The notes: a model not told the origin generated them from the letters alone. 63,953 bases of DNA from Minisyncoccota bacterium (GCA_028714275.1 JAQTMP010000001.1:1-63953); one strand, 5' to 3'. Positions 2,331-57,551 are shown, counted from the first letter of the stretch. Translations and numbers: made by a program.

Positions 2331-5078
2331 TTACACAATTTTCACTTCCTCCTTTTTGTACTTTTTCAACACTTCTTCCTCAACTTCTTCCCGAGCACGA
2401 CCAAATTTTAGATACGAAAGCTCTTTTAGCTTGTCCACTAGCTCTGGACGGCCTTTCGGAGGAAAACCGGCCTTTTCAATATTAAATGGACGAGTAGGGC
2501 GACCGTCAACAAGAAGCCGCAGGTATGCATTGTGATTGTCGATATTCATAATATCTTGCGCCGTGAAAACTGGTTCAAATTGCTTAGCCAGAAACTCGGC
2601 ATCATCAGAACCAACACGGTAGACTGCCATCGAGCCGACGTTGCCAAAAACGGAATCTTTGATTTTTTCATCGAGCTGAGCGATAAACTGATGGGCAATA
2701 GTGAGGGAAAGTTTATATTTGCGAGCTTCGGAAAGAATAGTAGAGATGGAATCGGTAGTAATGTTTTGAAACTCATCAATGTACAAATAAAATGGAGGCA
2801 ACGCCGCCTTTCCAAAAGAATCCACGCGGGAAAGAGCAGCCATCAAAATTTTGCCGACAAGAATGAGACCAATGAGGTTGGAGTTGATCGCTCCAAGACG
2901 GCCCTTAGAAAGATTGACCAGCAGGATTTTCTTTTTGTCCATAATATCTCTAAAATCAAAGGCGGAATGTTCCTGAGCAATAATAGGGCGCATGATTTCA
3001 TTGGCCAAAAAGACGTCGAATTTACTGGTGATATATGGCACCATATTTTGAAGAGCGCCCTCCCCTCCAGCTTTTTCCGCGATTTCTCGCCAAAACTGGA
3101 CCACCACCGGATTTTTGCAACGAGCAATTTTGAGATCGCGAAAACTTTTAACGGCCATCACGCGAGACACATCGAGTAATGTGTTGCCGCTCTCAGGATC
3201 TTCGATGACGAGCATTGTGGCATTACGGAAATACTGCTCAAACATCGGACCCATAGACTCAGGCACGGCGCCATAAAGTTTTTGAAAAATACTGAAAAGC
3301 TCATTGACCACAAAAGTTTTCTGCTCCGGAAAATCAAGATTGTATTCGAGCATGTTGAGACCCATTGGGCGAGCAGTGTGGGCAGGATCAAAATAAATCA
3401 CATCTTCATAGCGCTCGGGTGGAATGTTAGCTAAAATATCCTGAACGTCTGAACCGTGCGGATCAATAAAACACACCCCCTCTCCGTTTTTGATATCCTG
3501 GATGATCATATTCTTGAGTAGCGTCGTTTTACCCGTACCTGTCTGACCGATGACATACATATGACGCAAACGATCTTCAGGAGCAATATATATAGGGGTC
3601 TCAAGATTGCGATGCTTGTTGATGCCGAGCAAAATACCTTCGGTGGGCAGACCGAGCGGTGCGGAGGCGGTGCCCGCCTTTGACTGCTTGAGCTGAGGAG
3701 ACGAGGTCACACTTTCCCCTGGAAAGTGCATCAATGAAGTGATTTCCTGCAAGGACAAAGGCATGGCTGAAACCTCTTCAAAGGAACGAAAGGAAAAATC
3801 TCGGATCACTTTTTTCAAGTCCGCAGGACGCTCCGCTCGTTTGAATTTTAAGGTGTTGCCCAGCGTATTTTCAAACTGATTGAAAGAAGACTCTATGTCT
3901 GTCAAAATATCCGCCGCGCGGGCCCGGTTTTCGGCTGAGGCGAGGATGCGGATGTTGGCTTCGACGATCGGGGTGCTGATTTTTAATTTTATATTTTCTA
4001 CTGCAATTTCATCGACAACTTGAGGTTTTTCTTTATCTTTTTCTTTAGGCCCCTTGATCAAGTCTTTCATCAAATCCGCCCCGACCTTGCTAAACTCACC
4101 CAAAAAAGTATGCCTTATATCAATGGCCTTTTTGGTGGACACGCCTTTAGTGATTTCTTTAAGGGCCTCTTTGTAACGGCCAACATAATAAGCCCCTCGA
4201 GGATTTATGACAATTTGGATAGAGGCCCCCTCACCGTCCTTTTTGAGCTTTGAAAGAGTGTTGAGGATGACGTTGAGAGGATCATAGTCAAACTGTTCGT
4301 AGGTCTTGATAGGAAAAATAGGATTTTTTGCTTGAGTAGCAAATGAGCCAAGGGCAATCCCAGCTGGATTGAAGATATTGTAGTCATTTTTCTGCTCGAT
4401 CAGCTTGGCGTCCGGAAAAATAGAGAGGATTTGCTTTTCAAAAAGCGCCGCTTTTTCATCTGGCACCGAAACATAAAAAATAAATTCATGGCTTCCTTCT
4501 CGGACGGCAAGCTCGATCGAAAAATGGTCGTCTCGCGCCCGCGTCTCAACTGAAAGCATGCCGGCATAAAACTGCTCCATTGAGGAAATAAGCTCCTTGA
4601 GCTGTTTTGATTGCTCCTCCTTTTTTACTTCAGGCAAGGCTACTTCAAAAAGAGTGTGCCTAAGCGATTTAGAAAAGGGCGTGCCCTCTTTTAGCCCAGC
4701 GACAGGAAAACCTTTTTTGATGTACTCAACCAAAAAACGATGAAAATCATCCTCGAGATGTGGGTTGTTCATCCCCTCAATCACTGAAAGGACATTCATG
4801 ACGCCTTTCTCATAAAGAATATGCAGCAAAGCCTCAATCTGCTTGTCGTGAGGCTCAGGTGAAAGGTCAAGCACAATCTCATCACGGCTCTGCTCAGGAA
4901 TCTTGAAGGATTCATGAAGGACCTCTGAAGGCTCTGCTGCACGATAGGTCTTCACTTGATGCTTGATCACATGCTCAAGCTTATTTTCGACACCCTGCTC
5001 ATTGAGGGCACGCTCTTTGGCCGCGACTTGTTCGCGTAAATATGTCAGCTCTTCTTGAGGTGAAGAAAACTTTTCCAT
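2331..5078 (-). CDS. Large P-loop ATPase, TraD/VirD4/HerA-FtsK-like (type IV secretion DNA-binding-domain-type)
   Basis: Walker A GQTGTGKTTLL and Walker B-like FYLYIDEFQN in the C-terminal half of a 915-aa ORF. The N-terminal half is unassigned. Confidence 0.65.
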   Translation of the reverse strand: MEKFSSPQEELTYLREQVAAKERALNEQGVENKLEHVIKHQVKTYRAAEPSEVLHESFKIPEQSRDEIVLDLSPEPHDKQIEALLHILYEKGVMNVLSVIEGMNNPHLEDDFHRFLVEYIKKGFPVAGLKEGTPFSKSLRHTLFEVALPEVKKEEQSKQLKELISSMEQFYAGMLSVETRARDDHFSIELAVREGSHEFIFYVSVPDEKAALFEKQILSIFPDAKLIEQKNDYNIFNPAGIALGSFATQAKNPIFPIKTYEQFDYDPLNVILNTLSKLKKDGEGASIQIVINPRGAYYVGRYKEALKEITKGVSTKKAIDIRHTFLGEFSKVGADLMKDLIKGPKEKDKEKPQVVDEIAVENIKLKISTPIVEANIRILASAENRARAADILTDIESSFNQFENTLGNTLKFKRAERPADLKKVIRDFSFRSFEEVSAMPLSLQEITSLMHFPGESVTSSPQLKQSKAGTASAPLGLPTEGILLGINKHRNLETPIYIAPEDRLRHMYVIGQTGTGKTTLLKNMIIQDIKNGEGVCFIDPHGSDVQDILANIPPERYEDVIYFDPAHTARPMGLNMLEYNLDFPEQKTFVVNELFSIFQKLYGAVPESMGPMFEQYFRNATMLVIEDPESGNTLLDVSRVMAVKSFRDLKIARCKNPVVVQFWREIAEKAGGEGALQNMVPYITSKFDVFLANEIMRPIIAQEHSAFDFRDIMDKKKILLVNLSKGRLGAINSNLIGLILVGKILMAALSRVDSFGKAALPPFYLYIDEFQNITTDSISTILSEARKYKLSLTIAHQFIAQLDEKIKDSVFGNVGSMAVYRVGSDDAEFLAKQFEPVFTAQDIMNIDNHNAYLRLLVDGRPTRPFNIEKAGFPPKGRPELVDKLKELSYLKFGRAREEVEEEVLKKYKKEEVKIV

Positions 5079-6605: not shown

Positions 6606-7262
6606 TTAGATGCGAGAATTGATTTCGTTGATCAAATCACGCTGCACTTTCTCGACTGGCTGTTCGCCATTTATGTGTAAAAAATGATAATTCTCATTTT
6701 CCTTAAAATAATTGATAGCTGGAATAACATCCCGCTGGTACCAGTCTAGGCGTTTCTCAATCATGGCAATATCAATATCGTCCTCACGCCCCCGCGAAAG
6801 CAGGTGCTTACGCGACCATTCGCGACTAACATCCAGGTAAACCACAAAGGGCATTTCTCTTTTATAAAACCTCATGGCTGTATCCAAAATAACCGCTTCC
6901 TCATGAGAACGGGGTGACCCATCGATAATTAGCTGATCTTTAGGGTTGAATTCTCTGATCAAAAGATTGGACCACATCCAGATGGCTAAAAAATCTGGCT
7001 GGCGATTTCCTAAAGCTGACACTTCACTAGCCAATTTATTGGACGAACCCTTTTCGGACATAAAACTCCGGAAATGTAAGCCTGTCTCCAGGTAATACAC
7101 ACTTGTTTGGTTTTCAGGCGCAACAACCTCTCCCGTCTCCTTTTCCATAGCCTCAATCGCTATCTTGTCCTGTTTTATTAAGTGCTCCTTTAGAAGCTCC
7201 GCCTGCGTGCCCTTACCACAGCCTGAGCGGCCTATAAAAATAAAGGTCTGGGGTTGTTTCAT
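6606..7262 (-). CDS. adk: Adenylate kinase-like NMP kinase
   Basis: P-loop FIFIGRSGCGKGTQAELL. Position is after secY. The track ORF extends to 7361, but the ATG at 7262 (MKQPQTFIF...) avoids running into hairpin element A1. Confidence 0.8.
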   Translation of the reverse strand: MKQPQTFIFIGRSGCGKGTQAELLKEHLIKQDKIAIEAMEKETGEVVAPENQTSVYYLETGLHFRSFMSEKGSSNKLASEVSALGNRQPDFLAIWMWSNLLIREFNPKDQLIIDGSPRSHEEAVILDTAMRFYKREMPFVVYLDVSREWSRKHLLSRGREDDIDIAMIEKRLDWYQRDVIPAINYFKENENYHFLHINGEQPVEKVQRDLINEINSRI

Positions 7263-7290
7263 AGGGCTATTATACAGAAATGGAGAAAAA

Positions 7291-7408
7291 TTGGTACCCA
7301 GAAGTAAAGACTTTTTGGAGACACGGAAAATTTTTGCTAAAATTTTCCTTGTCCTCGCCAACGCTTTGGCTGCGGGGTCTCCAAAAAGTCTTTACTTCTG
7401 GGTACCAA
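7291..7408. repeat. Hairpin element family A, copy 1 (perfect 32-bp stem, 54-nt conserved core)
   Basis: Arms 7291-7322 and 7377-7408 are exact reverse complements. The core plus the TTTTTGGAGAC/GTCTCCAAAAA inner arms recur, inverted, at 13149-13251. Confidence 0.85.
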
Positions 7409-7544
7409 TATTCTATCTTATTGACAGATTATCGGCTGATTTGTTAGTATACTTTCACATACAGAGAATCAAGTGATTCCCTGCCGGCCCCGCCCACAAG
7501 GCGGGGAATATTTATTTATAAAAGCAATTTTAAAAATAAAATAA

Positions 7545-7618
7545 AATTCTCCAAAAGACCTTTAGAACGGGTTAGCGAGTCTTCGAGCGCTTTAGTGAGA
7601 AAGGTCTTTTGGAGAATT
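7545..7618. repeat. Hairpin element family B, copy 1 (perfect 19-bp stem, 36-nt loop with conserved core)
   Basis: Arms are 7545-7563 and 7600-7618. The loop core gaacgggttagcgagtcttcgagcgctttagtga recurs at 24360-24393 with 1 mismatch. It ends 1 nt from the secY stop codon. Confidence 0.85.
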
Positions 7619-7619
7619 T

Positions 7620-8897
7620 CTAATACTCCCGCATGGAAATCTGAGCATCTATCTTTTTAACAAGATCGAGAACAACTGAAACCACGATCAAGAGCGCGGT
7701 ACCTCCTACAGCTAGAGATTTTGGCACGCCTGGCACAATCAAAGGCAGGATAACGGGCAAAACCGCGATGACACCGAGAAAGATGGCTCCGACAAGGGTA
7801 ATACGAGTAACTACTTTGGATAAATATTCTGAGGTAGGCTCACCTGGACGAATGCCGGGAATGAAAGCGCCGCCTCGTTGGAGATTGGTAGAAATCATGT
7901 GAGGGTCAAATGTGACAGCAGTATAGAAATACGTAAAGAGGAATACGAGCATAAAATAAGCACCGGCATAGACCCACTGGTTGGCTATGATATTCAAAAT
8001 CTGGGTTGAAATACCACTGATAGTGGCATTGCCGAGATGGCTCAAAAGATTGAAAATCATCTGAGGAAAAAGAAGGATAGAGAGGGCGAAGATGATAGGG
8101 ATCACTCCAGCTTGATTGAGGCGAAGAGGGAGGTAAGTAGAGATACCTCCATAAACCTTGTTGCCCCGAACCCGTTTTGAATAAGTGACAGGGAGTGGGC
8201 GCTCAGCTTCGGTCACGATTACTACTAGATAAATAACCACCAAGGTCATGATAAAGACACCAGTGTACATAGGGATCTGACTCTGGTCGAAGCTAAAGAG
8301 GGTTTGGTTGAGAGCTTGAGGAATCCGAGAGACGATACCTGAAAAGATAATCATCGAAACGCCGTTGCCAATGCCAAACTCTGTCATAAGCTCTCCAACC
8401 CACATGAGGAGAATAGAACCAGAGACGATAGTAATAACGTTGGTGATCAAAGAGATGCCTGACAAAGCTCCCACAACCCCCTGTCGCTCCAAGAGCACAA
8501 TAAAACCAAAAGCCTGGATGAAAGCTAGAGGGACGGTCAAAATACGTGAGTATTGACTAAATTTTTTGCGACCAAGCTCCCCCTCCTCTTGATACATAGC
8601 TTTGAGAGTTGGAGACATCATGGTCAAAAGCTGCATGATAATAGAAGCCGTGATATAAGGACCAACACCAAGCATCACAATAGAAAGGGTAGAAAGTCCT
8701 CCACCGGAAAAGACGTTGAGCAAACCAAAAAATTGGTTGCTATTAAAAAATATATTGAGCTTGGCAATATCTACACCTGGGATTGGCACTGCAGCAAGAA
8801 GACGAAAAACTACAAGTGAGCCAAGCATAAAAAGGACTCGGTTGCGCAAAGTCCGATCTTGGATGACCAACTTACATTTTTCGATAAAAGTATTCAT
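7620..8897 (-). CDS. secY: Preprotein translocase subunit SecY
   Basis: 425-aa polytopic membrane protein, follows rplO as in spc operons. Confidence 0.95.
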   Translation of the reverse strand: MNTFIEKCKLVIQDRTLRNRVLFMLGSLVVFRLLAAVPIPGVDIAKLNIFFNSNQFFGLLNVFSGGGLSTLSIVMLGVGPYITASIIMQLLTMMSPTLKAMYQEEGELGRKKFSQYSRILTVPLAFIQAFGFIVLLERQGVVGALSGISLITNVITIVSGSILLMWVGELMTEFGIGNGVSMIIFSGIVSRIPQALNQTLFSFDQSQIPMYTGVFIMTLVVIYLVVIVTEAERPLPVTYSKRVRGNKVYGGISTYLPLRLNQAGVIPIIFALSILLFPQMIFNLLSHLGNATISGISTQILNIIANQWVYAGAYFMLVFLFTYFYTAVTFDPHMISTNLQRGGAFIPGIRPGEPTSEYLSKVVTRITLVGAIFLGVIAVLPVILPLIVPGVPKSLAVGGTALLIVVSVVLDLVKKIDAQISMREY

Positions 8898-12338: not shown

Positions 12339-12605
12339 CAAAGCATTTTTCCTTACGAAACATCTAGGGTATACTTAGATTAATACGCCTTATGTAGCTA
12401 CTATGAGTAAAAAGAGTCTTTGGATATTTGGATACTTTGTTTCTTAATCTTTTCCTATACCCTATTTTTGGCATAATTTTCCTTGTTGCTGGTATTTTTT
12501 TGATTCGCTCGAGGTGATATTTATTCGAACATTCTCCCGGGTGCGCAGCCGAATAAAGTAATGCTGAGGTATTGAACTGTTAAGAAAACTTGACTAAATA
12601 ATAAT

Positions 12606-13079: not shown

Positions 13080-13135
13080 AACCCGCCACTCAACCCAGGA
13101 ACCCATCCTGCCAGTTGAGGGTGGGTTTTCTGTTT
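13078..13135 (+). terminator. Rho-independent terminator of the 12606-13079 gene
   Basis: Stem aaaacccgccactcaac / gttgagggtgggtttt, followed by a T-run. Confidence 0.55.
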
Positions 13136-13148
13136 AAACAGTTGCGCT

Positions 13149-13251
13149 AAATAAATAGTGGTTTTTGGAGACCCCGCAGCCAAAGCGTTGGCGAGGATAA
13201 AGAAAATTTCAGCAGAAATTTTCTGTGTCTCCAAAAACCACTATTTAGTTT
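13149..13251. repeat. Hairpin element family A, copy 2 (inverted relative to copy 1)
   Basis: Arms are 13149-13172 and 13227-13251 (1 mismatch). The core equals the reverse complement of the copy 1 core with 5 differences, 4 of which form two compensatory pairs. It ends 3 nt from the rplE stop. Confidence 0.85.
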
Positions 13252-13254
13252 GGG

Positions 13255-13800
13255 CTATTTTTTGAAAAGAAAACCCAACTTCTCCAACATCGCCCGAGTA
13301 AGTTTTTTATCCTTTGAAGTAGTTACGATAGTAACCGCAAAACCAAAGACATCTTTGAGCTCTTCATCTGAAGTTTCAGGAAAGACGGTGTGCTCTTTAA
13401 CCCCAATGGTAAAGTTGCCCATAGCGTCAATGGCTTCTGGCTTGAGGCCACGGAAGTCACGGGTACGAGGGAGAGCAATGTTTACAAGCTTATCAAGAAA
13501 GCTATACATACGGTCACCACGGAGAGTGACCTGATAGCCGACAGGATCGCCTTCTCGCACCTTGAAGGTAGCGATTGATTTTTTGGCGGCTTTCTCAGCC
13601 ACTTTCTGACCAGTGATCTTTGTAAGACGGTCGCCGATAAGTTTCTTCTTGTTGGCATCTTTGACCGAGCCAGTGGCCGAACCAATGACAACTTTGACGA
13701 GCTGAGGAGCTTCCATCTTGTTTTTAAAACCAAAATCTCCTTTCATTTCATCAAAAAGAGCTTTTTCTTTATCTTTTATAGTGTGTGATTGTGTTTTCAT
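13255..13800 (-). CDS. rplE: 50S ribosomal protein L5
   Basis: ATFKVREGDPVGYQVTLRGDRMYSFLDKLVNIALPRTRDFRG. Confidence 0.9.
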   Translation of the reverse strand: MKTQSHTIKDKEKALFDEMKGDFGFKNKMEAPQLVKVVIGSATGSVKDANKKKLIGDRLTKITGQKVAEKAAKKSIATFKVREGDPVGYQVTLRGDRMYSFLDKLVNIALPRTRDFRGLKPEAIDAMGNFTIGVKEHTVFPETSDEELKDVFGFAVTIVTTSKDKKLTRAMLEKLGFLFKK

Positions 13801-21180: not shown

Positions 21181-21370
21181 ATGTTTTAAAATTATTTATA
21201 ATTATTAATAAATTTTGCTAACAATTTTTGCACTGATGCTGCAAGTTTGGCTTATTTCTTGTCTCTTTCGTAGACAAAAAAAGGCGCAAAACGCGATACG
21301 GGTCATCATAGCAAACCTTGTTAGAAAGTCAAATCTTAAAGCCCTTCCTGCGTAATTATCTTTCTTACAA

Positions 21371-21483
21371 GCAAGCCTGTAGGTGACCTTTTGAGGAACT
21401 CACGGAGGACGACGGTCCGAGTGGGAGGAAAAAAGTCAGCAGACTTTTTATCCGTGTCCGAAAAAGGTCACCTACAGGCTTGC
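21371..21483. repeat. Hairpin element family C, copy 1 (perfect 22-bp stem, 69-nt loop with conserved 58-nt core)
   Basis: Arms are 21371-21392 and 21462-21483. Imperfect complementarity continues outward to about 21352/21497. The core recurs at 27324-27381. Confidence 0.85.
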
Positions 21484-21525
21484 CTATAAGAGAATTATGA
21501 GTAGTATGTCTTTTAGAGAAATCAA

Positions 21526-23214
21526 ATGCCCTTTACATCAAGAAAGGCTGAAACTATGCAAAAAGTGAATATTTTGCGGCCGGTGATAAAAATCCTGGCT
21601 TTAGGGCCAAAAGGTAGCAATGCCCATAAGGCGGCGCGCACTTTTGCTCGAAGCCATGGACTGAAAACCTCCGGCTATATGGTGGTCTTTTGCAAAAACC
21701 ACCGCGAGCTTTTTCGAAAATTTACGAGGGAAACCTGCTTTGCTATCGTCCCTGTCGAGAATTCAATTCACGGCAAGGTCAAAGGCGTTGCAGGGGCTCT
21801 AAATCGGGTCACCAGAGAGTACAACGCTTTTGAGATGCGCCGATTTACCAAGCAAATCAAATATTGCCTGGCTACCCGCAACGGATCCACTGTCGAAAGG
21901 GTGATTTCTCACCCCCAAGCCTTGGGTCAATGCAGCGAATTCATCCAAAAAAACTGCTTCGGAAGAAGCAGGGCCCCCTCAACCTCGGCAGCAGCAGAAT
22001 TGGTGGCTAAAAGTGAAAAGCACCAAGCCTATGGGGCTATTTGCTCCGAAGAATCAGCGACTGAAAACGGCTTGTCCATTCGGGCAAGAGACATTCAAAA
22101 TCCAAAAAACCGGACCACCTTCGCTGCCCTTTCCCACGTCAACTCCATTGCATCCAAAAAAATCGCCATTTACGGTGGAAAGGGTGCCTTTGGAAGGCAA
22201 TGGGCCCGTCGACTCAAGGATCAGGGATGCACAGTCAGTTGCATCGAAGTGGAAACTCCTGAGGAAACTCAGAAAAAAATAGTAAAGGAGAGCGATGTCG
22301 TCATGATTAGCACTCCAACCCTAGTTTCCCCTTTGATTGCCAAAAGGCTTGCCCGCTGGCTGAATAAAAAACAGCTGGTGATCGATCTGACGTCCGTCAA
22401 GGTGCCGGTCTGTCGTGAGCTCACAAAATCGCAGGCAGAGTTTGCCAGCATCCACATGATGTTCGCTCCTTCGGCCAAAAGCTGGAAAGGGCAAAACATC
22501 CCGGTGTGCAAAGTGCGCATCTGCAAATGGAAAAAGTGGCTCAACGAACTTCTTAACTCCATAGGGGGGAAGACTGTCCCAACGACTCAGGAAAGGCACG
22601 ACCGGATTGCGATGATAGTCCAGCAGCAAGAGCACTTCCTGACCAAAGTAAAAATACTGGCAACCATTGAAAGCGGAGTCTCTATCAAGGAGATCCTGGC
22701 TTTCGCTAGTCCCTTTTACCAGCCGGGAATAAATCAGCTTTTGCGGTTTCTAGCCAAGCCGACCGGCATTTATACCGACATGCTCGAGGCAAATGAAAAC
22801 ACACCTCAAATGCTGAGCAACCTGCGTCGGGCCTTTAAAAAGCTCGACCTCATGGTGAAAAACAAACGGTCGGAAAAGATTAAACGGGTCATTGCAGATG
22901 CTCGGACGTATTTTGGAAAAAACACCATTCGTGGTGGCGACCAATATTCGGAAGAGCTGATCGCTGACATCGCCCGGAAGGATCCAGACGAGGTGGCGGT
23001 AATTGAGTTTACCGACAAAGAAAACCAAGCTGGCCTGTTGGCGGGTATCGCCAATGTTTTCAAAAAGTCCAACATCAATCAGTCGGGATTTAAGTACCGC
23101 CAACAAGGTCGGCGGCATCAATTCCTGATCTGTTTTGATGATCCCAAGGATCATCCGGTGATCCAAAAGGCCCTAGCTGTCATCCGACAAAAGTACGGAT
23201 GCCGAGTGGGGTAA
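21526..23214 (+). CDS. Fusion protein: prephenate dehydratase-like domain + prephenate/arogenate dehydrogenase (TyrA)-like domain + C-terminal ACT-like domain
   Basis: The N-terminal part has ILALGPKGSNAH, VPVENSIHGKV, ISHPQALGQC and NRTTFAAL (PDT-like). The middle has IAIYGGKGAFG Rossmann, DLTSVK, HMMFAPS and ERHDRIAMIVQQQEHF (TyrA-like). The C-terminal ~70 aa look like an ACT fold. An alternative start is MQKVNIL at 21556. Confidence 0.7.
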   Translation: MPFTSRKAETMQKVNILRPVIKILALGPKGSNAHKAARTFARSHGLKTSGYMVVFCKNHRELFRKFTRETCFAIVPVENSIHGKVKGVAGALNRVTREYNAFEMRRFTKQIKYCLATRNGSTVERVISHPQALGQCSEFIQKNCFGRSRAPSTSAAAELVAKSEKHQAYGAICSEESATENGLSIRARDIQNPKNRTTFAALSHVNSIASKKIAIYGGKGAFGRQWARRLKDQGCTVSCIEVETPEETQKKIVKESDVVMISTPTLVSPLIAKRLARWLNKKQLVIDLTSVKVPVCRELTKSQAEFASIHMMFAPSAKSWKGQNIPVCKVRICKWKKWLNELLNSIGGKTVPTTQERHDRIAMIVQQQEHFLTKVKILATIESGVSIKEILAFASPFYQPGINQLLRFLAKPTGIYTDMLEANENTPQMLSNLRRAFKKLDLMVKNKRSEKIKRVIADARTYFGKNTIRGGDQYSEELIADIARKDPDEVAVIEFTDKENQAGLLAGIANVFKKSNINQSGFKYRQQGRRHQFLICFDDPKDHPVIQKALAVIRQKYGCRVG

Positions 23215-23260
23215 AAACCTTCGCGCAGGAGGGAGGGCGCGATAAAAAGTCAAAAACAAA

Positions 23261-23302
23261 ACGGCGTGCTGGTCCAAGGGGACCTGCACGCCGTATTTTT
23301 TT
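23261..23302. terminator. Bidirectional rho-independent terminator between convergent genes
   Basis: 15-bp stem acggcgtgctggtcc / ggacctgcacgccgt (1 central mismatch), loop aagg, then T7. There is an A-run on the other side. Confidence 0.7.
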
Positions 23303-24005
23303 ACTCAAACTTCAACTGTCCCGGCCACTGCTTTTCGACAATGCCGACAATATCCCCCCATACGAATTCGCACGGAATATGCTTACCCGCTTCCAGGATG
23401 TCGTCGCCGATAAACACCAAGACCTCAAGCGAATAGGGTTCATTTGTGGAGGAAATCCAAGGCCGATACACGAACATTGAAACCCAGTTGGTTGTACCTG
23501 GACCCTCGCCGATATTGCCATGACGGAACTCTCGGTTTTTCAAAAAAAAGCCCTCTGTCGGAAAAACAATCGAGCCGCCTTGTAAGCTAGGCGGATGAAT
23601 GGAGGGCTTACCCGTGAGCTGCCCAAGATAATATTCGACTTGGGGCCTTTCACAGGTCTGATATTCTCCACTGCCCAGATCGAGACTCAAGCTTTCAATC
23701 GCCACCACCAGGACGAGCTGCCCAGGCTTGCTCGCGATCTTTTCCTTAAGAGCCGCCACAGCTTCCTCCTTTTTTTGGTCAAAACCGTAAAAGAACTGAA
23801 ACTGCTTGACCAGATCTTCACCGGGGCCCCCGCTGGCTTCGATCTGTTCGTGAGCACAGGAGGAAAAATGACTGAGCACTTTTTCCAAGCGCCTAATCCG
23901 ACCCGCATGTTTTTTTTCTTCGATGGAGATTTCCACCAAGACTGAAGCGTGCCTTCGCCGCAAGGCCTCGATCACAGGATCGCTACCATTAGAATTTTTT
24001 TCCAT
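23301..24005 (-). CDS. Hypothetical protein
   Basis: 234-aa ORF with protein-like composition. No motif recognised. Confidence 0.5.
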   Translation of the reverse strand: MEKNSNGSDPVIEALRRRHASVLVEISIEEKKHAGRIRRLEKVLSHFSSCAHEQIEASGGPGEDLVKQFQFFYGFDQKKEEAVAALKEKIASKPGQLVLVVAIESLSLDLGSGEYQTCERPQVEYYLGQLTGKPSIHPPSLQGGSIVFPTEGFFLKNREFRHGNIGEGPGTTNWVSMFVYRPWISSTNEPYSLEVLVFIGDDILEAGKHIPCEFVWGDIVGIVEKQWPGQLKFE

Positions 24006-24264
24006 AAAATTTTCAAATCTAAAGCAAGACTAGTCCAAAACGTCCATTTTTGCAACATCCCTTATGTCTAATCTGCCTCTATTGACTTCCCCTGTTTCAG
24101 GAAGGCAAGATCGCCTGCCTTTATTATGCGGGACGCTTCCTTGGAAAGGGTTGCGGAAACTTCGATGAGTTACGCACCTCCTACAATCGGTTAGTGGATG
24201 AAGCAACAGGTGCCATCGCCGGTGGCTCATAATTGTTGCTGCTGTGGAAGCCAAAAGCTCAAAC

Positions 24265-24307
24265 AAAATCGGCCGCACTTCAATGTGTGCGGCCGATTTT
24301 TTCTTTT
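24265..24307. terminator. Rho-independent terminator hairpin (aaaatcggccgcac / gtgcggccgatttt)
   Basis: 14-bp perfect stem and 8-nt loop, with T-runs on both strands. It lies about 40 nt beyond element B2, downstream of fusA. Confidence 0.65.
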
Positions 24308-24347
24308 CCAATTTTAAAGTATTGTAGAAAATAGAAATAAAAAAACA

Positions 24348-24405
24348 GGAAGGCCTCTCGAACGGGTTAGCGAGTCATCGAGCGCTTTAGTGAGAGAGGC
24401 CTTCC
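24348..24405. repeat. Hairpin element family B, copy 2 (12-bp GC-rich stem flanked by A/T runs, 34-nt conserved loop)
   Basis: Arms are ggaaggcctctc (24348-24359) and gagaggccttcc (24394-24405). The loop matches copy 1 except for 1 nt. It ends 6 nt from the fusA stop codon. Confidence 0.85.
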
Positions 24406-24411
24406 TTTTTT

Positions 24412-26556
24412 TTATTTGCTTCTATTTTCTACAATAGTCTTCTCCACATTTGGAGGGACCACATCGTAGTGGTCAAATTCCATGGTAGCTGAACCTCGTC
24501 CAGCGGTCATAGAACGAAGAGAGGTAGTATAGCCGAACATTTCTGACAATGGCACCATCGCCTTGATGGCTTTATTCATACCGCGATCTTCCATGCCTTC
24601 GATCTGAGCCCGCTTGGCTGAAAGTGAGCCAGTGATGTCTCCCATGAACTGTTCTGGGGTGACCACTTCTACCTTCATGATCGGCTCGAGGATGACAGGG
24701 CGAGCTTTTTTAGCGGCTTCTTGAAAGGCTTGAGAACCGGCAATCTTGTACGCGATTTCGGATGAGTCCACATCGTGATAAGAACCAAAGTTCAAATCAC
24801 AAGAAACGTTGACCATTTTAAATCCAGCCACAATCCCGCGCTCCATCGCTTCGCGAACGCCTTTTTCAACAGCAGGAATAAATTCTTGAGGAATAACCCC
24901 TCCTTTAATATTATCGATAAATTCAAAGTCATCGTAGCGCTTGACATTTTTTGGCACTTTGGCGCCCTCTTCCAATTTTTCAAGAGGTTTGATAGCAATT
25001 TTGACGTGGCCATACTGACCTTTACCTCCAGACTGCTTAATATATTTGTGTTCTGCTTCCGCACTGCCAAGAATAGTCTCTCGATAGGCCACTTGAGGTT
25101 TACCCACGTTGGCTTCTACGCCGAACTCACGCTTCATACGATCCACCATGATTTCAAGATGAAGCTCACCCATACCTGAGATGATAGTTTCCATTGTTTC
25201 GGGGTTGGTTGAGATGCGGAAAGTTGGATCCTCGTCTCCCAATTTTTTAAGAGCCATACCCATTTTTTCTTGATCCGCTTTGGTTTTTGGTTCGATACGG
25301 AGGGAAACCACAGGCTCGGCAAACTTAATAGGGTCGAGCACAATGGGATGATTTTCATCACAAAAAGTATGGGAGGTTTTGGCTTCCTTTAGACCTACAG
25401 CTGCCGCAATTTCTCCGGCAAAAACCTTTTTTACTTCTTCACGCTTGTCGGCTTGAAGGCGCACGATACGGCCAAGACGCTCCTTGTTGCCAGTGGTCGA
25501 GTTGTATAAATATGAGCCGGCTTCGACAGTCCCTGAATAAACACGGAAGAAGGTAAGCTGCCCGACAAACGGATCTGATTGGAGCTTGAAAGCCAAAGCA
25601 GCAAAAGGCTCGCTGTCAGAAGCGTGGCGAACAATCACATCTCCAGTGTTTGGATCGATACCTTGGATTGGGGGAACATCAAGAGGTGAAGGAAGATACT
25701 CCACGACGGCATCAAGGACAAGTTGAACCCCGCGATTCTTCAAAGCCGAGCCGGTAAAGACTGGGAAGATTTTGTTGGCAATCACTCCTTTACGCAAAGT
25801 TGCTTTGAGTTCCTCAATAGTAAACTCGCCGCCTTCGAGGTAACGATTCATCAAGTCTTCATCGAGCTCAACGATCTTTTCAACAAGCTCGGCGCGATAT
25901 TTTTTGGCATCTTCGAGATGAGTAGCTGGGATTTCCATTTCGCGGACATCAATACCCATATCTCCCTCGAAAGCGTAGGCCTTCATTTTCAAAAGATCGA
26001 TAACAGCTTCAAATTTGTCTTCTTCGCCAATAGGCAGCTGCATCCGGACAGCACTTTTATTGAGACGGTCAAGAATAGACCTGAAGGAACGTTCAAAAGA
26101 ACCTCCTGTGCGGTCAAGCTTGTTGATAAAACAAATGCGGGGCACATGATACTTGTCGGCTTGACGCCACACTGTTTCAGATTGAGGCTCTACTCCGGCC
26201 ACACCGTCAAAGACCACCACCCCTCCGTCGAGCACTTTGAGAGAACGCTCCACCTCCACGGTAAAGTCCACGTGTCCTGGTGTGTCAATAATATTAAAAC
26301 GATGTTTCTTGGACTGGTCCTTGCCCATATAGCTTGGATTCCAAAAACAGGTAATAGCAGCAGCTGTAATAGTGATGCCTCGTTCTTTTTCCTGTTCCAT
26401 CCAGTCAGTGACAGCTTCACCTTCATGCACTTCACCAATCTTGTGGCTCATGCCTGTGTAATAAAGAATGCGCTCAGACGTAGTGGTCTTGCCAGCGTCG
26501 ATGTGAGCAATGATACCAAAGTTTCGGGTTTTTTCGAGTGAATAGTCGCGTTCCAT
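24412..26556 (-). CDS. fusA: Elongation factor G
   Basis: [20 protein letters not shown] and NKLD motifs. 714 aa. Confidence 0.98.
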
Positions 26557-26961: not shown

Positions 26962-27246
26962 CTAAGACATGAGTTGTCTTGCAAGCTCGTCAATATTTTT
27001 TGCTTTGTAAAAATGACCCTTTTTATACTCTTTCTCAGATCTAGTAATTGAGCGAATTAAGCTAGCTGTAGGACGAGGTGCTATTGAAAAAGTCACTTCC
27101 TTTGAACGAACAAACTGTCTCAGGAAGGCATTTATAACTGTACTCAAAGAGATGCCCATCTCATCAGCGGTTTTTTTTGCATCTAATTTAAGACTCTTAT
27201 CCATTTTTATAGAAATAAGTGTCTTTGTGTGATTGATTGTAGTCAT
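26962..27246 (-). CDS. DinJ/RelB-like antitoxin, copy 2
   Basis: MTTINHTKTLISIKMDKSLKLDAKKTADEMGISLSTVINAFLRQFV. The track ORF (to 27525) runs through element C2 and into rpsG, so the internal ATG at 27246 is used. Confidence 0.65.
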   Translation of the reverse strand: MTTINHTKTLISIKMDKSLKLDAKKTADEMGISLSTVINAFLRQFVRSKEVTFSIAPRPTASLIRSITRSEKEYKKGHFYKAKNIDELARQLMS

Positions 27247-27281
27247 ATACCAAAGTATATACTTTGGTATATTATTGTCAA
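27247..27281 (-). promoter_or_regulatory. Promoter (TTGACA - 16 nt - TATACT) overlapping a perfect 24-bp palindrome ATACCAAAGTATATACTTTGGTAT that abuts the antitoxin ATG; candidate operator and leaderless transcript
   Basis: The palindrome is 27247-27270. The -35 is at 27276-27281 and the -10 at 27254-27259 (plus-strand coordinates). Only 7 nt separate the -10 from the ATG, and no Shine-Dalgarno sequence is visible. Confidence 0.5.
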
Positions 27282-27296
27282 GTAACGTAGTAGTAT

Positions 27297-27409
27297 AAAA
27301 AAACAAAAAACCTCTTGAAGGAGACTCGCGGAGGACGACGGTCCGAGCGTGAGGAAAAAAGTCAGCAGACTTTTTATCCGTTCTCCTGAAAGAGGTTTTT
27401 TGTTTTTTT
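27297..27409. repeat. Hairpin element family C, copy 2 (perfect 20-bp A/T-rich stem, 73-nt loop)
   Basis: Arms are 27297-27316 and 27390-27409. The 58-nt core differs from copy 1 at 3 positions, two of which are a compensatory pair. It ends 3 nt from the rpsG stop. Confidence 0.85.
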
Positions 27410-27412
27410 AAA

Positions 27413-27883
27413 TTACCAAGCCAGGTGGGCAAAAGCCTTGTTGGCCTCGGCCATTTTGTGAGTGTTTTCGCGCTTTTTGACCGCTTCACCTTCGTTTTTG
27501 GATGCGAGGATGATTTCATCAGCAAGCTTGAGATGCATTGGCTGACCCTTTTTAGCTCGAGCAGCGAGAATGATCCATTTCATAGAAAGATGGCTGCGGC
27601 GCTCAGGTCGAACTTCACGGGGAACCTGATAGTTGGCGCCACCAACTCGGCGGGAGCGGACTTCCATAGCCGGAGCGGTGTTGTTGAGAGCTGTATCAAA
27701 AACTTCGAGAGGATTTTCAACTTTTTCCTTTTCTTTAATGGCATCAAAAGCGCCATAGACAATAGCGCGGGCGGCATTTTTCTTGCCTCGTTCCATGACG
27801 TAGTTTACAAACTTCTCAATCTTTTCAGATTTGAAAACTGGATCTGGCTTGACGATATTTCGATTTTTAACTTTTCTTCGCAT
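27413..27883 (-). CDS. rpsG: 30S ribosomal protein S7
   Basis: EVRSRRVGGANYQVPREV...MAEANKAFAHLAW. Confidence 0.95.
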   Translation of the reverse strand: MRRKVKNRNIVKPDPVFKSEKIEKFVNYVMERGKKNAARAIVYGAFDAIKEKEKVENPLEVFDTALNNTAPAMEVRSRRVGGANYQVPREVRPERRSHLSMKWIILAARAKKGQPMHLKLADEIILASKNEGEAVKKRENTHKMAEANKAFAHLAW

Positions 27884-30790: not shown

Positions 30791-31693
30791 TTACAACCTC
30801 CTTTCGATCGCTGCTTTATAGACGGCATCCCTGTCTGCCGAGCTGACTACATTCGCGATCTCGAGAACTCTCTCGACCTTCGCGATAGCATCCTCTCTCG
30901 ACAGACGTGGTGTCCGATGCAGACCTTCCCTCAAATACCACTGGCGTGGCGACAAGAGGGAGAAACCCGAATCAGCGACAAGCTTTCGCCATCCGTCTTC
31001 AGGTAGCACTTCCTCCGTCTCGTGACCGAGATAGTGCCGTCGGCTTTTTTCGGGAATCCACGAGGCCATTTGCGCATCGCAGTAGCGGAGTCCTTTGACA
31101 TCAAATTCATTGTATCCGAACTTAGCAAGCTCGGGCAAGAACGATAGGTCGGAGAGTTCCGCTATGTAAGGATGCGAGATGGGCAAAGCTCGAACACCTT
31201 CTTCTTTTGCCAACCGAAGGGTTTCAAGATGCTGTTGCACCGTGACCTTTTCGACTGGCGGATGGTTGCCGGTGATGCCGACGACCAAACAGAAGTTTTC
31301 AATTCGAGCAAGTCTCTTCATCACGTCTCGCTTTATCGGCCACTTCGTTACACACGTCACCAATTTTGCAATAGGCGATACCGTTTCGAAAAAGTGCCAG
31401 AGGAAACGATTGAGCTTCGGCCAGAATGGATCCGTCACTGCCGTAAAACCCACGAAGTCGCCCTCAAGGATCTCGAACGGGAAACGAAAGAATCGGTCCT
31501 GCTCCTCTGCCGAATCAACGATCCACGGAGTGACATTTATGAAGGTCGAGGCTCTGTTTACTCCCGCGATCGGGTTGGTGTTCCAGAGCTCTCGGCGTGC
31601 ATCGTGCTCCGTAATGAAGCAGTATTTGCACGCTACCGGACAGGCTGGTTGACCAGCCTCGAATCTTTGCCCACTACTTATTTTTGTTGGCAT
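30791..31693 (-). CDS. Radical SAM protein, SplB/COG1533-like
   Basis: CX3CX2C motif ACPVACKYCF near the N-terminus, then FTAVTDPFWP and CVTKWPIKRD, resembling the TDPYQP/TKS signature of that family. GC is visibly higher than in the flanks. Confidence 0.65.
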   Translation of the reverse strand: MPTKISSGQRFEAGQPACPVACKYCFITEHDARRELWNTNPIAGVNRASTFINVTPWIVDSAEEQDRFFRFPFEILEGDFVGFTAVTDPFWPKLNRFLWHFFETVSPIAKLVTCVTKWPIKRDVMKRLARIENFCLVVGITGNHPPVEKVTVQQHLETLRLAKEEGVRALPISHPYIAELSDLSFLPELAKFGYNEFDVKGLRYCDAQMASWIPEKSRRHYLGHETEEVLPEDGWRKLVADSGFSLLSPRQWYLREGLHRTPRLSREDAIAKVERVLEIANVVSSADRDAVYKAAIERRL

Positions 31694-32220
31694 TGGCTGA
31701 TCTCCTTTCTGATGGATTGGTTGATTTGTAGTTCGGGCAGTGTTCCATCTATTTCCACATACCGAAACTTTTGCTTGAGATGCGAGAGAAGCTCCGGCAA
31801 ACGATTCACTTCAACAGCGAGACGCGCTTTTGCTTTTGCCAACGCATCGCCTTGACGTTTACGACCGAGCACCCGCTCAATTGCTACTTCCTCCGAAATG
31901 ATCAGATTCACCACGAGGGTGGGATCTACCGGATGAAGCAGAAACTGGTTGAGATTTCTGGGATATCCGTCAAGGATCCAGTTGTCTTGAATGTCCGAAC
32001 CGAGAAGAACCTGGACAGCAAGGTCATCATCGAGCGGTTGCCAGATGTCACCATTGCGTTCGAAATACTCCGCGATTCTTTTTCCAAGATCGTCATCGGC
32101 TTTGAGATGCTTGCGCACCTCATCGCCAATAGAGATATGGGGCACACCGTAACATCGCTGCAACAGTATGCCTTGAGTGCCTTTGCCGGCACCCGGTAAT
32201 CCAATAAGAAGAATTCTCAT
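31678..32220 (-). CDS. Adenylate-kinase-family NMP kinase (second copy in window)
   Basis: MRILLIGLPGAGKGTQGILL...ISIGDEVRK...LDGYPRN. Its 3' end overlaps the radical SAM gene start by 16 nt. GC-shifted. Confidence 0.75.
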   Translation of the reverse strand: MRILLIGLPGAGKGTQGILLQRCYGVPHISIGDEVRKHLKADDDLGKRIAEYFERNGDIWQPLDDDLAVQVLLGSDIQDNWILDGYPRNLNQFLLHPVDPTLVVNLIISEEVAIERVLGRKRQGDALAKAKARLAVEVNRLPELLSHLKQKFRYVEIDGTLPELQINQSIRKEISQCQQK

Positions 32221-45715: not shown

Positions 45716-46153
45716 ATGCTAAAAAATATCCCTTATATTACCGACCCAGATTGCCTTTTTTGTAAAATCATTGAGGGCTCAATTTCATCATATAAAGTCT
45801 ACGAAGATGCTGACACTTATGCTTTTCTGGATATCAATCCAAACAATCACGGCCACACCCTAGTAGTGCCAAAAGATCATTTTGAAAATATTTATGGCAC
45901 CCCAGATGAAACTCTCTGTCGTACCATGATCACAGCCCGGAAAGTCGCCATCGCAGTCAAAAACGCCCTAAATGCAGACGGGGTAAACATTAACATCAAC
46001 AACGAAACGGCGGCTGGCCAAATAATTTTTCATACTCACATTCATATTATTCCTCGTTTCAATAATGACGGTTTCAAACACTGGGCCCAAAAAAGCTACC
46101 TCCCTGGCGAAGCCGAAAGCGTCTTAGAAAAGATAAAAGAAAAACTTAAATAA
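45716..46153 (+). CDS. HIT-family (histidine triad) nucleotide hydrolase
   Basis: CLFCKII...FLDINP.N.GHTLVVPK...HTHIHIIPR. Confidence 0.9.
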   Translation: MLKNIPYITDPDCLFCKIIEGSISSYKVYEDADTYAFLDINPNNHGHTLVVPKDHFENIYGTPDETLCRTMITARKVAIAVKNALNADGVNININNETAAGQIIFHTHIHIIPRFNNDGFKHWAQKSYLPGEAESVLEKIKEKLK

Positions 46154-46271
46154 AATTAAGAGCCCTTTCGGGAGCACGGATAAATCCTTGCTAGGATTTT
46201 CCTCGTGCTCGCTCCGTCGAGCCTCGCAAGTCTCCCTCAAGGGTTCTTAATTTTATTTAAGTTTTTCTTTT
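46135..46271. repeat. Hairpin element family D, copy 1 (31-bp stem with one G-T, ~75-nt conserved core)
   Basis: Arms are 46135-46165 and 46241-46271. The 5' arm contains the last 5 codons plus stop of the HIT gene, and the 3' arm reaches the pgk stop codon. The core recurs at 55551-55620. Confidence 0.85.
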
Positions 46272-47412
46272 ATTTTAGCGCTTCAATTCCGACTAACGTC
46301 TCATCCAAAAGATATTGCAACATCGCACCGCCGCCAGTAGAAATAAAACTAATTTTTGACTCAGCTTTTTCCCCGAGAGAGCTAATAGCGGCCAGAGTAT
46401 CTCCCCCGCCCACCACCGCTTCTAAAGAGCCGTCCGCATCTGAAATAATTTTAGCCAGCTCAATAGTCGGCTCCGTAAAACCAAGCTCATAATTTCCGAG
46501 TGGACCATTCCACAAAACACATTTTGATTCACCAATCATGGTCTGCAGCATAGACATGGTTTCGGGACCTGCATCCATAATGACGTCTGCGTCACCCACT
46601 TGGTCTGATTTCTTGGCTGAAACAGCCTGAGTATTTTTATCCTGCACGATGACATCTGTCGGGACCAAAAGCCTGGTGTCCGCTACTATATCTGTGACCG
46701 AAAAATCTCCACCTGAGACAAGCGATGCTCCGACATTCCATCTGCGCGCCTTAAAAAGATTGTTGGCCAAAGCTCCTCCCACAAAAACATGGTCAGCCAA
46801 CGTTAAAAACTTTTGAATCAAAGGGAGTTTGGTGTCAAACTTAGCGCCGCCTAAAATAAACAAAAAAGGATGAGGGGGGTGAAATATTTTTTTGAGATGG
46901 TTGATCTCGTCAGACAAAAGCAGCCCAGCATAGTGAGGTAAAAATTCGGGTACCCCCACTATCGAAGCATGTGATCGGTGTGAGACAGAAAAAGCATCAT
47001 TCACGTAGATGTCTGCAAAACCAGCTAGTTTTTTAGAAAATTCTCGATCATTCTTTTTTTCTTCTGGGTATTGGCGGATATTTTCGACGAGAATGATATC
47101 TCCGTCCGCCATAGAAGACATTTCGGCTAAACTTTCTTTGCTAAAAATATCTTCAACAAAAGTTAAAGGAAAAATCTTCATTAAATAATCATAGATAGGC
47201 CGCAGGGAATCTCCGCCCTTGCCTTCAATGTGACTAATGAGGATAATCTTTGCCTTTTGATTGCGTAAAAACTCAATAGTCGCAAGGCTTTTTTTGATTC
47301 GGGTGTCTCCAGTGATTTTACCGTTTTCGATGGGGACATTAAAATCTACCCGCACAAGTACTTTTTTACCGGCAAGGGATTCCAAGGTGGTGATGGATTT
47401 TGGGATGAGCAT
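46270..47412 (-). CDS. pgk: Phosphoglycerate kinase
   Basis: RVDFNVP, ISH.GKG, NDAFSVSHR and STGGGA motifs. Confidence 0.95.
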   Translation of the reverse strand: MLIPKSITTLESLAGKKVLVRVDFNVPIENGKITGDTRIKKSLATIEFLRNQKAKIILISHIEGKGGDSLRPIYDYLMKIFPLTFVEDIFSKESLAEMSSMADGDIILVENIRQYPEEKKNDREFSKKLAGFADIYVNDAFSVSHRSHASIVGVPEFLPHYAGLLLSDEINHLKKIFHPPHPFLFILGGAKFDTKLPLIQKFLTLADHVFVGGALANNLFKARRWNVGASLVSGGDFSVTDIVADTRLLVPTDVIVQDKNTQAVSAKKSDQVGDADVIMDAGPETMSMLQTMIGESKCVLWNGPLGNYELGFTEPTIELAKIISDADGSLEAVVGGGDTLAAISSLGEKAESKISFISTGGGAMLQYLLDETLVGIEALK

Positions 47413-49986: not shown

Positions 49987-49988
49987 AC

Positions 49989-50612: not shown

Positions 50613-50620
50613 ATAGCGAA

Positions 50621-52429: not shown

Positions 52430-52451
52430 TTTAAAAAAATCTTTAAAAGAT

Positions 52452-53666: not shown

Positions 53667-53712
53667 TGAAATTTTATTAAAATTTTAACTAAAACATGAC
53701 CCGTCGGTTTTG

Positions 53713-55467: not shown

Positions 55468-55530
55468 AAATAGGGTGAAAAAGTATTTTCATATATATTG
55501 TATCAAATTTTTAGGGGCAAGAGAATGAAA

Positions 55531-56620: not shown

Positions 56621-56623
56621 TCT

Positions 56624-57028: not shown

Positions 57029-57033
57029 GAGAG

Positions 57034-57440: not shown

Positions 57441-57551
57441 GGAAGATTTTCTCGTCAGAAATGAATCTGGGCGATAGGTGTATCTTGCCTTAACTTTTTG
57501 CGCCGAAGGACAAAGTTCAAAGGGTCTAAGGAGACCACAGTGGACAAGTCC

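Follow-up and report, generated by a model that had tools for sequence, protein, structure and literature searches.

Several kinds of short hairpin-forming DNA repeat are known from bacteria. REP, REPIN and BIME sequences of Proteobacteria, which are associated with RAYT, are short, non-coding, multicopy palindromes that lie extragenically and mostly downstream of genes; the arms of REPINs evolve in a correlated way, and BIMEs hold a conserved linker between inverted REPs. In REP elements the palindrome itself is conserved, and a GTAG or CGTC tag marks the foot of the hairpin (PMC3733652). Repeats that resemble miniature inverted-repeat transposable elements (MITEs), such as Correia/NEMIS of Neisseria, ERIC of enterobacteria, RUP and RPE, are non-autonomous, long imperfect hairpins of 100-170 bp, inserted in co-transcribed regions between genes and affecting mRNA processing. 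Integron attC sites are imperfect palindromes of 57-141 nt beside cassettes, defined by structure and recognised as folded single strands. Hairpins can also arise by template switching in replication (the Ripley model; PMC8794818, PMC8604942), which yields reverse-complement arms, homogenisation, stem expansion and possibly spacer inversion. Among phyla surveyed, those of the candidate phyla radiation (CPR) rank first in the reported density of perfect inverted repeats (PMC13155455). In this study, eight long hairpins were analysed in and around the ribosomal super-operon on a 63,953-nt stretch of DNA from a Minisyncoccota bacterium (JAQTMP010000001.1), called the window below. The elements work like REP/REPIN or MITE-type repeats and behave like hairpins maintained by template switching, yet they lack features that define REP and attC sequences and the direct target duplication of MITEs, and their loops are longer than those of simple terminators.

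In our own hairpin scan, exactly eight hairpins of the window reached the cut-off score of at least 17, and 20 dinucleotide-preserving shuffles contained none even at 14. A repeat scan returned the same eight as local inverted repeats at 7.3, 7.5, 13.2, 21.4, 24.3, 27.3, 46.2 and 55.6 kb, with 34-65 nt enclosed between the arms. All are predicted to fold into a single long stem with a branched tip (-32 to -77 kcal/mol), and each has a conserved apical core inside a stem of about 19-55 bp whose sequence is specific to the copy. Their resemblances in the repeat scan define four pairs, A1/A2 (76 nt at 93% identity), B1/B2 (88 nt at 76%, with a near-identical 34-nt core), C1/C2 (58 nt at 95%) and D1/D2 (58 nt at 100%). 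Coordinates are collected in Table 1.

Cores A, C and D form one superfamily with the motif ACGGAWAA-stem-TGCT-stem-TTTTCCT followed by a GC-rich hairpin, and this motif was matched five times in the window against zero expected. The A/C/D core is a three-way junction. Its P2 hairpin carries the loop TGCT, its P3 hairpin is GC-rich with the loop C(A)GTC, and the joining strands are conserved. From 41 aligned copies the consensus TTTTnnGnG-CACGGATAAA-TTTT-TGCT-AAAA-TTTTCCTCGnGCTCGC-(P3, loop C(A)GTC)-CTCGCAAGT-CnCnnAAAA was obtained, in which P2 pairs interchange among U-A, C-G, A-U and G-C with a single unpaired cell. A covariance model built on this alignment, R1, found exactly six copies in the window, those of A, C and D (58-87 bits), and gave 73 matches in CPR loci, as many as three per 8 kb, with more copies in the window's relatives. 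Over 72 aligned copies, 93.4% of the cells are paired, compared with 69.6% in shuffles and 43-61% when the partners were slid, and double-sided changes number 321 against 88 in shuffles. An extended -10-like TGCTAAAAT in the P2 loop was considered as a promoter and dropped, since about half of the copies read TGCTGAAAT and orientation is random.

The distribution of the core was followed with a motif scan that sampled one genome per species, and the counts refer to the 120 matches listed. In 42 of them the core is enclosed by a long stem whose arms are 53-79 nt apart, mostly 53-61. Where the record gives a group, all of these stem-bearing loci are Patescibacteria metagenome-assembled genomes (MAGs), from Saccharibacteria, Paceibacterota/Parcubacteria, Taylor-, Zambryski-, Lloyd- and Berkelbacteria, and several are labelled merely 'bacterium'; the matches from other phyla are without a stem. 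Viral contigs gave two weak matches to the A/C/D motif and none to the B core; there is no link to phages. Rfam 15 returned no match in the window at its gathering threshold, and at an E-value threshold D1 retrieved generic long-hairpin (miRNA precursor) models alone, far under their own thresholds. A published description of the element was not found in the literature. As far as checked, the family is undescribed, and its distinctive feature is a conserved structured tip on flank-derived, locus-specific arms.

Other cores share this architecture. The relatives L132, L133, L143 and L149 contain a variant, E, of the three-way junction, and an F core of 27 nt (TAAGACTTGGGCAAGCGCCCCGGAGCG), set between GAGAC and GTCTC on perfect arms of 31-61 bp, occurs in L204, L206 and L170; several more core families with the same architecture are present in relatives. 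The B core of about 34-35 nt differs from A/C/D and is not matched by R1, and blastn-short over all fetched loci returned B1 and B2 alone. Kinship of the B and F cores with A/C/D would be read from shared short motifs only (GCTCG..CTCGCTA; ..AAGTCT). The conserved inner stem is limited to 8-12 bp (TTTTnGGAG/CTCCnAAAA, or GAGAC/GTCTC), and the true termini vary from copy to copy. The GAGAC/GTCTC ends were considered as a type IIS restriction site, and this was set aside as a resemblance that follows from the consensus. A 23-nt stretch at 12464-12486, ATTTTTGGCATAATTTTCCTTGT, in the cargo between the toxin-antitoxin pair TA1 and A2, has 87% identity to the P2 region of the A1 core; it may be a decayed element and is not matched by R1.

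The outer arms, by comparison, are local. D1 and D2 have identical cores on arms of 45 and 29 nt that show no similarity past the first 10-12 bp. At rplE, fusA, HIT and the reverse-transcriptase (RT) gene, imperfect outer arms enter the coding 3' end by 21-25 nt. The A2 right arm at 13258-13282 is the final 25 coding nt of rplE and its left arm is the inverted copy; the rplE C terminus, GFLFKK before the stop, looks native from a reading of the sequence, and Pfam L5_C reaches residue 179 of 181. Likewise, the outer right arm of B2 at 24415-24436 is the final 22 coding nt of fusA, with the inverted copy in the left arm at 24320-24345, and the fusA C terminus (TIVENRSK before the stop) agrees with that of the relative L209 (QIVENRK before the stop). 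The D1 left arm holds the final 21 coding nt and the stop of HIT, and the inverted copy, in the right arm, finishes at the pgk stop. At D2 the right arm (55622-55642) is the final 21 coding nt of the RT gene, and the opposite arm is the inverted copy. An empty site was found in L207 (86% fusA identity), where the pgk and HIT stops are 2 nt apart and pgk ends in GIEALK before the stop, as in the window. From this comparison the window gained about 116 nt between the two stops, made up of the inherited module together with the HIT tail copied in inverted form. The fusA end of L206 has the same flank-copy pattern, with an F core.

Orthologous elements were compared for changes in their arms. Upstream of rpsS, 12 of 34 arm positions differ between L204 and L206, and all of these differences are mirrored in the opposite arm; pairing within each genome stands at 33/34 or 35/35. 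In the HIT-tail arms of the window and L204 about half of the positions differ, each difference being mirrored in the copy, and the arm differences between L133 and L143 after fusA are mirrored as well. Among 60 elements with arms of at least 12 bp, 24 have perfect arms, and the median arm is 23 bp. Perfect stems of 35-61 bp fit a copying process and are not readily yielded by selection on RNA pairing. One conserved junction can bear different cores in different relatives. These comparisons show a local origin and a concerted evolution of the arms.

Table 1. Long hairpins of the window. CM, score with covariance model R1; MFE, minimum free energy.
Element	Coordinates	Strand	Setting	Core or loop	Arms	Arm features	MFE	CM (bits)
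A1	7287-7412	+	secY-adk spacer; start 24-27 nt upstream of adk ATG (7262)	7323-7376, canonical orientation on + strand	7287-7322 / 7377-7412	36 nt, 97% complementary	-73.9	62.1
B1	7544-7619	+	abuts secY stop (7620-7622)	loop 7564-7599, 36 nt, contains shared B core GAACGGGTTAGCGAGTCTTCGAGCGCTTTAGTGAG (35 nt)	7544-7563 / 7600-7619	20 bp		
A2	13117-13282	-	after rplE; perfect stem ends 3 nt before rplE stop (13255-13257)	13173-13226, canonical orientation on - strand	13117-13172 / 13227-13282	56 nt, 82% complementary		57.8
C1	21363-21491	-	divergent tuf / PDT-PDH spacer, between tuf start (21180) and PDT-PDH start (21526), upstream of tuf promoter-like site 21332-21305	21398-21456	21363-21397 / 21457-21491	35 nt		64.7
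B2	24320-24436	+	fusA 3' end; GC stem ends 6 nt before fusA stop (24412-24414)	24360-24393	24320-24359 / 24394-24436	inner GC stem GGAAGGCCTCTC, A-tract and T-tract at its sides		
C2	27290-27416	-	between rpsG stop (27413-27415) and RelB-YafQ pair; reaches rpsG stop	27325-27381	27290-27324 / 27382-27416	35 nt, with A-tract and T-tract		65.7
D1	46130-46276	+	between convergent HIT and pgk; spans HIT stop (46151-46153) and pgk stop (46270-46272)	46175-46231	46130-46174 / 46232-46276	45 nt, 91% complementary		87.3
D2	55529-55642	+	3' end of RT gene of a diversity-generating retroelement; covers RT stop (55619-55621), which falls in conserved inner stem	55558-55613	55529-55557 / 55614-55642	29 nt; 55548-55605 (58 nt) identical to D1		84.8

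On balance, and with confidence a little better than even, the family is read here as a non-autonomous palindromic intergenic repeat, widespread in Patescibacteria, whose arms are grown and homogenised by replication template switching. The element is built of two layers, an inherited module made of the structured apical core with about 8-12 bp of inner stem, and an outer stem formed in place by inverted copying of the flank next to it. New copies would arrive in intergenic spacers, mainly right after stop codons, and their inverted repeat would seed template switching in DNA replication, with the nascent strand folding back or swapping strand and copying the neighbouring sequence in reverse complement. 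The arms would thereby lengthen in steps of tens of bases and stay near-perfect despite drift, the core could invert, and growth would halt where coding sequence or a start region would be damaged. Rapid arm growth of this kind would account for the same cores on different arms in D1 and D2, a stop at coding constraints for the D1 arm that ends exactly at the pgk stop, and template switching for the random orientation of the core. By analogy with REP, ERIC and Correia elements, the transcribed stem-loops at mRNA 3' ends would probably be terminators, 3'-end protectors or RNase III substrates, an effect at the RNA level that would be a by-product of the element and not its reason for being.

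Replication template switching homogenises the arms of inverted repeats, expands them and inverts spacers (PMC8604942, PMC8794818), and PMC13100816 is reported to describe effects of the same kind. Two marks of the process were looked for and found: arms that are the reverse complement of a pre-existing flank (the rplE, fusA, HIT and RT ends, and the empty site of L207), and mirrored arm differences between orthologues (L204/L206, window/L204 and L133/L143). The documented cases differ in scale, being isolated and having arms of about 7-16 bp and spacers of a few bases, whereas the hairpins here are multicopy, with a structured spacer of 27-68 nt and arms of up to 61 bp.

Several observations weigh against this account. 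A transposase or integrase was found neither among the window open reading frames (ORFs) scanned nor beside about 70 copies. A candidate case of core inversion lies upstream of rpsL, where the orthologous F core has opposite orientations in L204 and L206 on diverged arms, but the arms of the flipped core in L204 are 61 bp long, and short-read assemblers may fail to resolve them; core orientation may be unreliable wherever arms exceed the assembly k-mers. In some other MAGs whole hairpins, including arms of 14-28 bp, are common to copies within one genome (L072/L083, L011/L074), at unrelated loci and with 92-96% identity; arms can thus travel with the core too, and a hairpin can be copied as a unit. 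Between such near-identical copies (L072/L083, L004/L012, L031/L119) the P3 stem is the most variable part, with arms and P2 almost unchanged. The P3 differences comprise several compensated changes, for example GGCTCAGTCAGCC versus GCGCCAGTCGCGC, and the P3 stem seems to have been exchanged or replaced between copies.

Many arms also resemble bidirectional terminators, with an A-tract, a GC stem and a T-tract, and relatives have core-less palindromes at the same junctions; some copies may accordingly have inserted into existing hairpins. Taken to its end, this leads to the alternative that a small mobile core inserts at the apex of pre-existing long palindromes or terminator hairpins, the variable stem reflecting target preference. 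REP sequences serve as insertion targets for IS1397 and for some members of the IS110 family. In the relatives, ribosomal-protein spacers are rich in core-less perfect palindromes, plain palindromic terminators stand at the same junctions, and the outer boundary of the pgk/HIT palindrome is identical in the window, with a D core, and in L204, with an F core. Insertion into ready-made palindromes is nevertheless judged unlikely. Every window hairpin with a score of at least 17 carries a core, and there are no empty long palindromes; native coding ends lie within the arms of A2, B2, D1 and D2; and since the RT stop falls in the conserved inner stem of D2, a core-less palindrome there would sit inside the RT reading frame. 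The core-less palindromes of the relatives belong to repeat families peculiar to each genome and are no unique copies of a flank, and the palindromes would themselves still require a process of inverted duplication. In L132, L138 and L148 they are perfect and genome-specific, with arms of 16-25 bp and a loop of 0-4 nt, and about 10 nt separate them from the stop on one side and from the next start on the other (e.g. L138 8348-8397, L148 9624-9663); these palindrome-filled spacers fit the record inverted-repeat density reported for CPR phyla.

The remaining objections to template switching concern the core. Its unpaired segments ACGGATAAA, TGCT, TTTTCCTCG and CTCGC are near-invariant across Saccharibacteria and Paceibacterota, a G.A mismatch is conserved next to a covarying neighbour pair, and G.U pairs exceed A.C pairs (80 vs 23). 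This conservation and the G.U excess may point to an RNA role or to a specific ligand, which the template-switching model leaves unexplained. In addition, E-type copies stand after fusA in three diverged relatives (L133, L143 and L149), which suggests that they are retained. One way to accommodate the conserved segments and the G.U excess is that the core is a small RNA gene, or a folded single-stranded or duplex DNA site for a conserved nucleoid, replication or recombination protein of Patescibacteria, the stems only presenting it. The strong covariation, the variability of P3 between otherwise near-identical copies and the seven copies upstream of type IV pilin paralogues described below would agree with such a function. 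We regard it as improbable, because Rfam has no match, the copies have no common promoter or terminator, their orientation to genes is random, no partner protein was found, and B and F, which are far smaller and different cores, share the architecture and the positions. A related proposal, somewhat less doubtful though still well short of even, is that the A/C/D/E core is a new functional folded RNA or single-stranded DNA, conserved across Patescibacteria, with a dedicated protein that drives both the spread and the inverted duplication of the target, by a new transposition-like mechanism in which the inverted target duplications left behind vary in length and the hypervariable P3 would be the specificity determinant.

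All eight hairpins lie at gene boundaries, where an earlier note on this DNA had placed them, and the distances that it gave to gene ends and starts are correct to within a few bases. Pfam confirmed the neighbours as adk, secY, rpsN, a ParE/YafQ-like toxin, rplE, tuf, an opposite-strand PDT-PDH fusion, fusA, YafQ with RelB, rpsG, HIT, pgk and a reverse transcriptase. That the hairpins hug stop codons, as the same note had said, is borne out by the window coordinates and by gap lengths in the wider family. There, with gene calls from a crude home-made caller that also underlie the orientation counts, gaps to the stop have a median of 31 nt and gaps to the start one of 89 nt (Mann-Whitney p=0.0015), and 7 of 73 stop-side gaps overlap the coding end. 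Elements occupy 45 co-directional, 14 convergent and 11 divergent spacers against a background of 370, 41 and 45 (p=0.004), the divergent spacers holding 16% of the elements. Within co-directional gene pairs the core is sense in 25 cases and antisense in 20; core orientation has no strand bias relative to transcription. Arm mismatches show no wobble bias to the transcribed strand (10 vs 13), and an asymmetry relative to the core strand (11 vs 28) was judged uninterpretable. Among about 70 copies examined, the only recurring neighbours are ordinary housekeeping genes and type IV pilin paralogues, which have seven copies upstream (N terminus ..FTLIELLVVIAIIGILA; L004, L012, L031, L036 and L119, all of one Saccharibacteria MAG).

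The positions raise the question whether the hairpins are kept by selection as host cis-regulatory RNA, that is as terminators or attenuators, 3'-end stabilisers or RNase III sites that insulate the units of the super-operon. Like bidirectional intrinsic terminators, they stand right after stops, have plain versions at the same junctions, and in B2, C2 and B1 combine an A-tract, a GC stem and a T-tract, the GC stem and T-run enclosing loops of 34-57 nt. Promoter-like sites follow hairpins in the window, L204 and L206 (e.g. the tuf site at 21332-21305), most relatives examined have a hairpin of some kind after fusA, and E-type copies are kept there in the three relatives named above. REP, ERIC and Correia elements influence mRNA stability and RNase III processing. 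By this analogy a role of the hairpins as terminator or RNA-processing hairpin is plausible. As the reason for the elements, RNA-level selection is a minority view to which we assign limited weight. Core orientation is random and some copies lie in divergent promoter regions; several others lie inside operons expected to be co-transcribed. A consensus terminator scan calls neither B2, C2 and B1 nor, in general, loops of 27-68 nt, and A1, C1 and D2 are without a clear T-run. A terminator needs no conserved core, the conserved structure of these loops and the over-long stems that enter coding sequence set the hairpins apart from bidirectional terminators, and perfect 35-61 bp stems and arms that copy coding sequence are not explained by selection on RNA.

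The earlier note had further proposed that the hairpins were acquired with accessory cassettes, or mark their integration, at breaks in conserved gene order. In the window, hairpins and cargo do coincide at rpsG/C2/TA2, at fusA/B2..PDT-PDH..C1/tuf and at rplE/A2/..TA1, and they could be attC-like recombination sites or scars that admit cassettes into the ribosomal super-operon. This was examined at 748 conserved-gene junctions of relatives, 63 of which have cargo and 25 a core-bearing hairpin; the closest relative in the collections has 88% fusA identity, so that the comparison is one above the strain level. Core-bearing hairpins occur at 5 of the 63 cargo junctions and are absent from the other 58, and 20 of the 25 hairpins stand at cargo-free junctions such as rplD/rplW, rpsG/fusA and tuf/rpsJ, so the proposed association with cargo and with synteny breaks did not hold across relatives. 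A weak enrichment of hairpins at cargo junctions (odds ratio 2.9, p=0.05) is seen, but cargo junctions simply have more intergenic space. In L209 (87% fusA identity) the same opposite-strand PDT-PDH cassette lies between fusA and tuf with two short ordinary terminators and no long hairpin, an outcome that the earlier note had listed as a refutation. A PDT gene lies likewise between fusA and tuf on contig P0004 of a second relative; B2 and C1 thus appear younger than the cassette. The end of fusA that carries a B core in the window is occupied in relatives by a core of E, F or A/D type or by a plain palindromic terminator, with cargo or not. The hairpins are independent of the accessory cassettes.

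Nor do the hairpins have the layout of attC sites, in which conserved outer R''/R' boxes (GTTRRRY) surround a variable centre; here the layout is reversed and the outer ends are unconserved. The cores that flank one cassette differ (B2 and C1), the cassettes lie on both strands in place of a co-oriented array, and an integrase was not found among the window ORFs scanned. An origin as attC-like scars is accordingly held to be very unlikely. As to the cargo itself, it was found at 16 of 22 fusA/tuf junctions of relatives, 24 of 50 rplB/rpsS, 8 of 25 rplE/rpsN, 4 of 14 secY/adk and 4 of 15 rpsG/fusA junctions. In the ribosomal super-operons of this clade (L121-L209) the recurrent cargo junctions hold different cargo in each genome, including toxin-antitoxin pairs, PG_binding proteins, PDT-PDH and, in L207, rplJ-rplL. 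Promoter-like sites stand after cargo in the window at 26659-26631 before fusA and at 11684-11656 before rpsN.

The remaining comparisons concern mobile repeats. In REP elements the palindrome is conserved, whereas in these hairpins it is the apex that is conserved, and every locus has its own outer stem, a copy of the flank: the members of the A, B, C and D pairs share the core and about 10 bp, on unrelated arms. There is no counterpart of the foot tag, since arm ends are unconserved and C(A)GTC is the inner P3 loop. A Y1 HUH transposase (RAYT) had no match among the window ORFs scanned, which represent 64 kb of the genome. MITE-like repeats are approached in some CPR genomes, where whole hairpins are repeated. 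MITEs, however, are bounded by conserved terminal inverted repeats and by direct duplications of the target site, whereas the window copies have in common the core and about 10 bp only, and their flanks are inverted copies; one possible 6-nt direct repeat was seen, in L083 only.

Long palindromes can break or confuse short-read assemblies, and the sole other contig with an identical rplE protein (1.2 kb) stops 47 nt past rplE, inside A2. An artefact of assembly or amplification, such as chimeric inverted joins, is nonetheless hardly credible as the source of the hairpins, because dozens of assemblies made independently in different projects contain the same cores, at orthologous sites, with covariation and intact neighbouring genes.

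Other features of the window were noted beside the hairpins. Between A1 and B1, antisense to secY-adk, the best promoter-like match of this region lies at 7421-7450 (TTGACA-18-TAGTAT with TG), and 7488-7506 holds a strong + strand terminator (CCCCGCC..GGCGGGG and a T-run); judged from these signals, 7421-7515 could yield a small RNA of about 50-60 nt. Two genes are adenylate-kinase-like (31678-32220 and 6606-7262), the second being the better match to Pfam ADK. Just upstream of the RelB-YafQ pair next to C2, a perfect loopless 28-nt palindrome, ATATACCAAAGTATATACTTTGGTATAT, occupies 27245-27272 and is probably the antitoxin's operator. Near B2, a strong + strand terminator with a 14-bp stem and a T-run (24265-24300) lies inside the minus-strand ORF 24030-24311, suggesting that the cargo from PDT-PDH to B2 may be encoded by the + strand ORFs 23199-23480 and 23595-23945 instead of those on the minus strand. 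Pfam gave no match for the cargo ORFs 23301-24005, 24030-24311 and 23595-23945.

D2 overlaps the RT stop of a complete diversity-generating retroelement (55619-58295). This comprises the RT gene at 55619-56620 (-) and a bAvd-like gene at 56624-57028 (+). Its template repeat occupies 57034-57165, and its variable repeat (57568-57699) is placed at the 3' end of a target gene that spans 57552-58295 (-). On the minus strand, all 20 differences between the template and variable repeats are A-to-N. A type IV pilus gene cluster lies at 48583-55467, and a gene for a VirD4/TraG-like coupling ATPase (2331-5078) adjoins an NYN-domain gene (1750-2295).

We know of no explanation for the record inverted-repeat density of the small and compact CPR genomes. 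The family described here offers a concrete object that can be searched for, a covarying three-way-junction module atop hairpins rebuilt from neighbouring DNA. In practice, such hairpins break short-read assemblies and may be mistaken for integration scars, and they mislead gene callers across them, with spurious ORFs and over-extended starts as a result. If the core has a dedicated partner, it would represent a new mobile-element mechanism. If the template-switch reading is true, these organisms would offer a natural case of gene ends visibly remodelled by hairpin-driven mutation, with stop codons supplied and coding tails duplicated, and operon punctuation would be reshaped too, even within the ribosomal super-operon.

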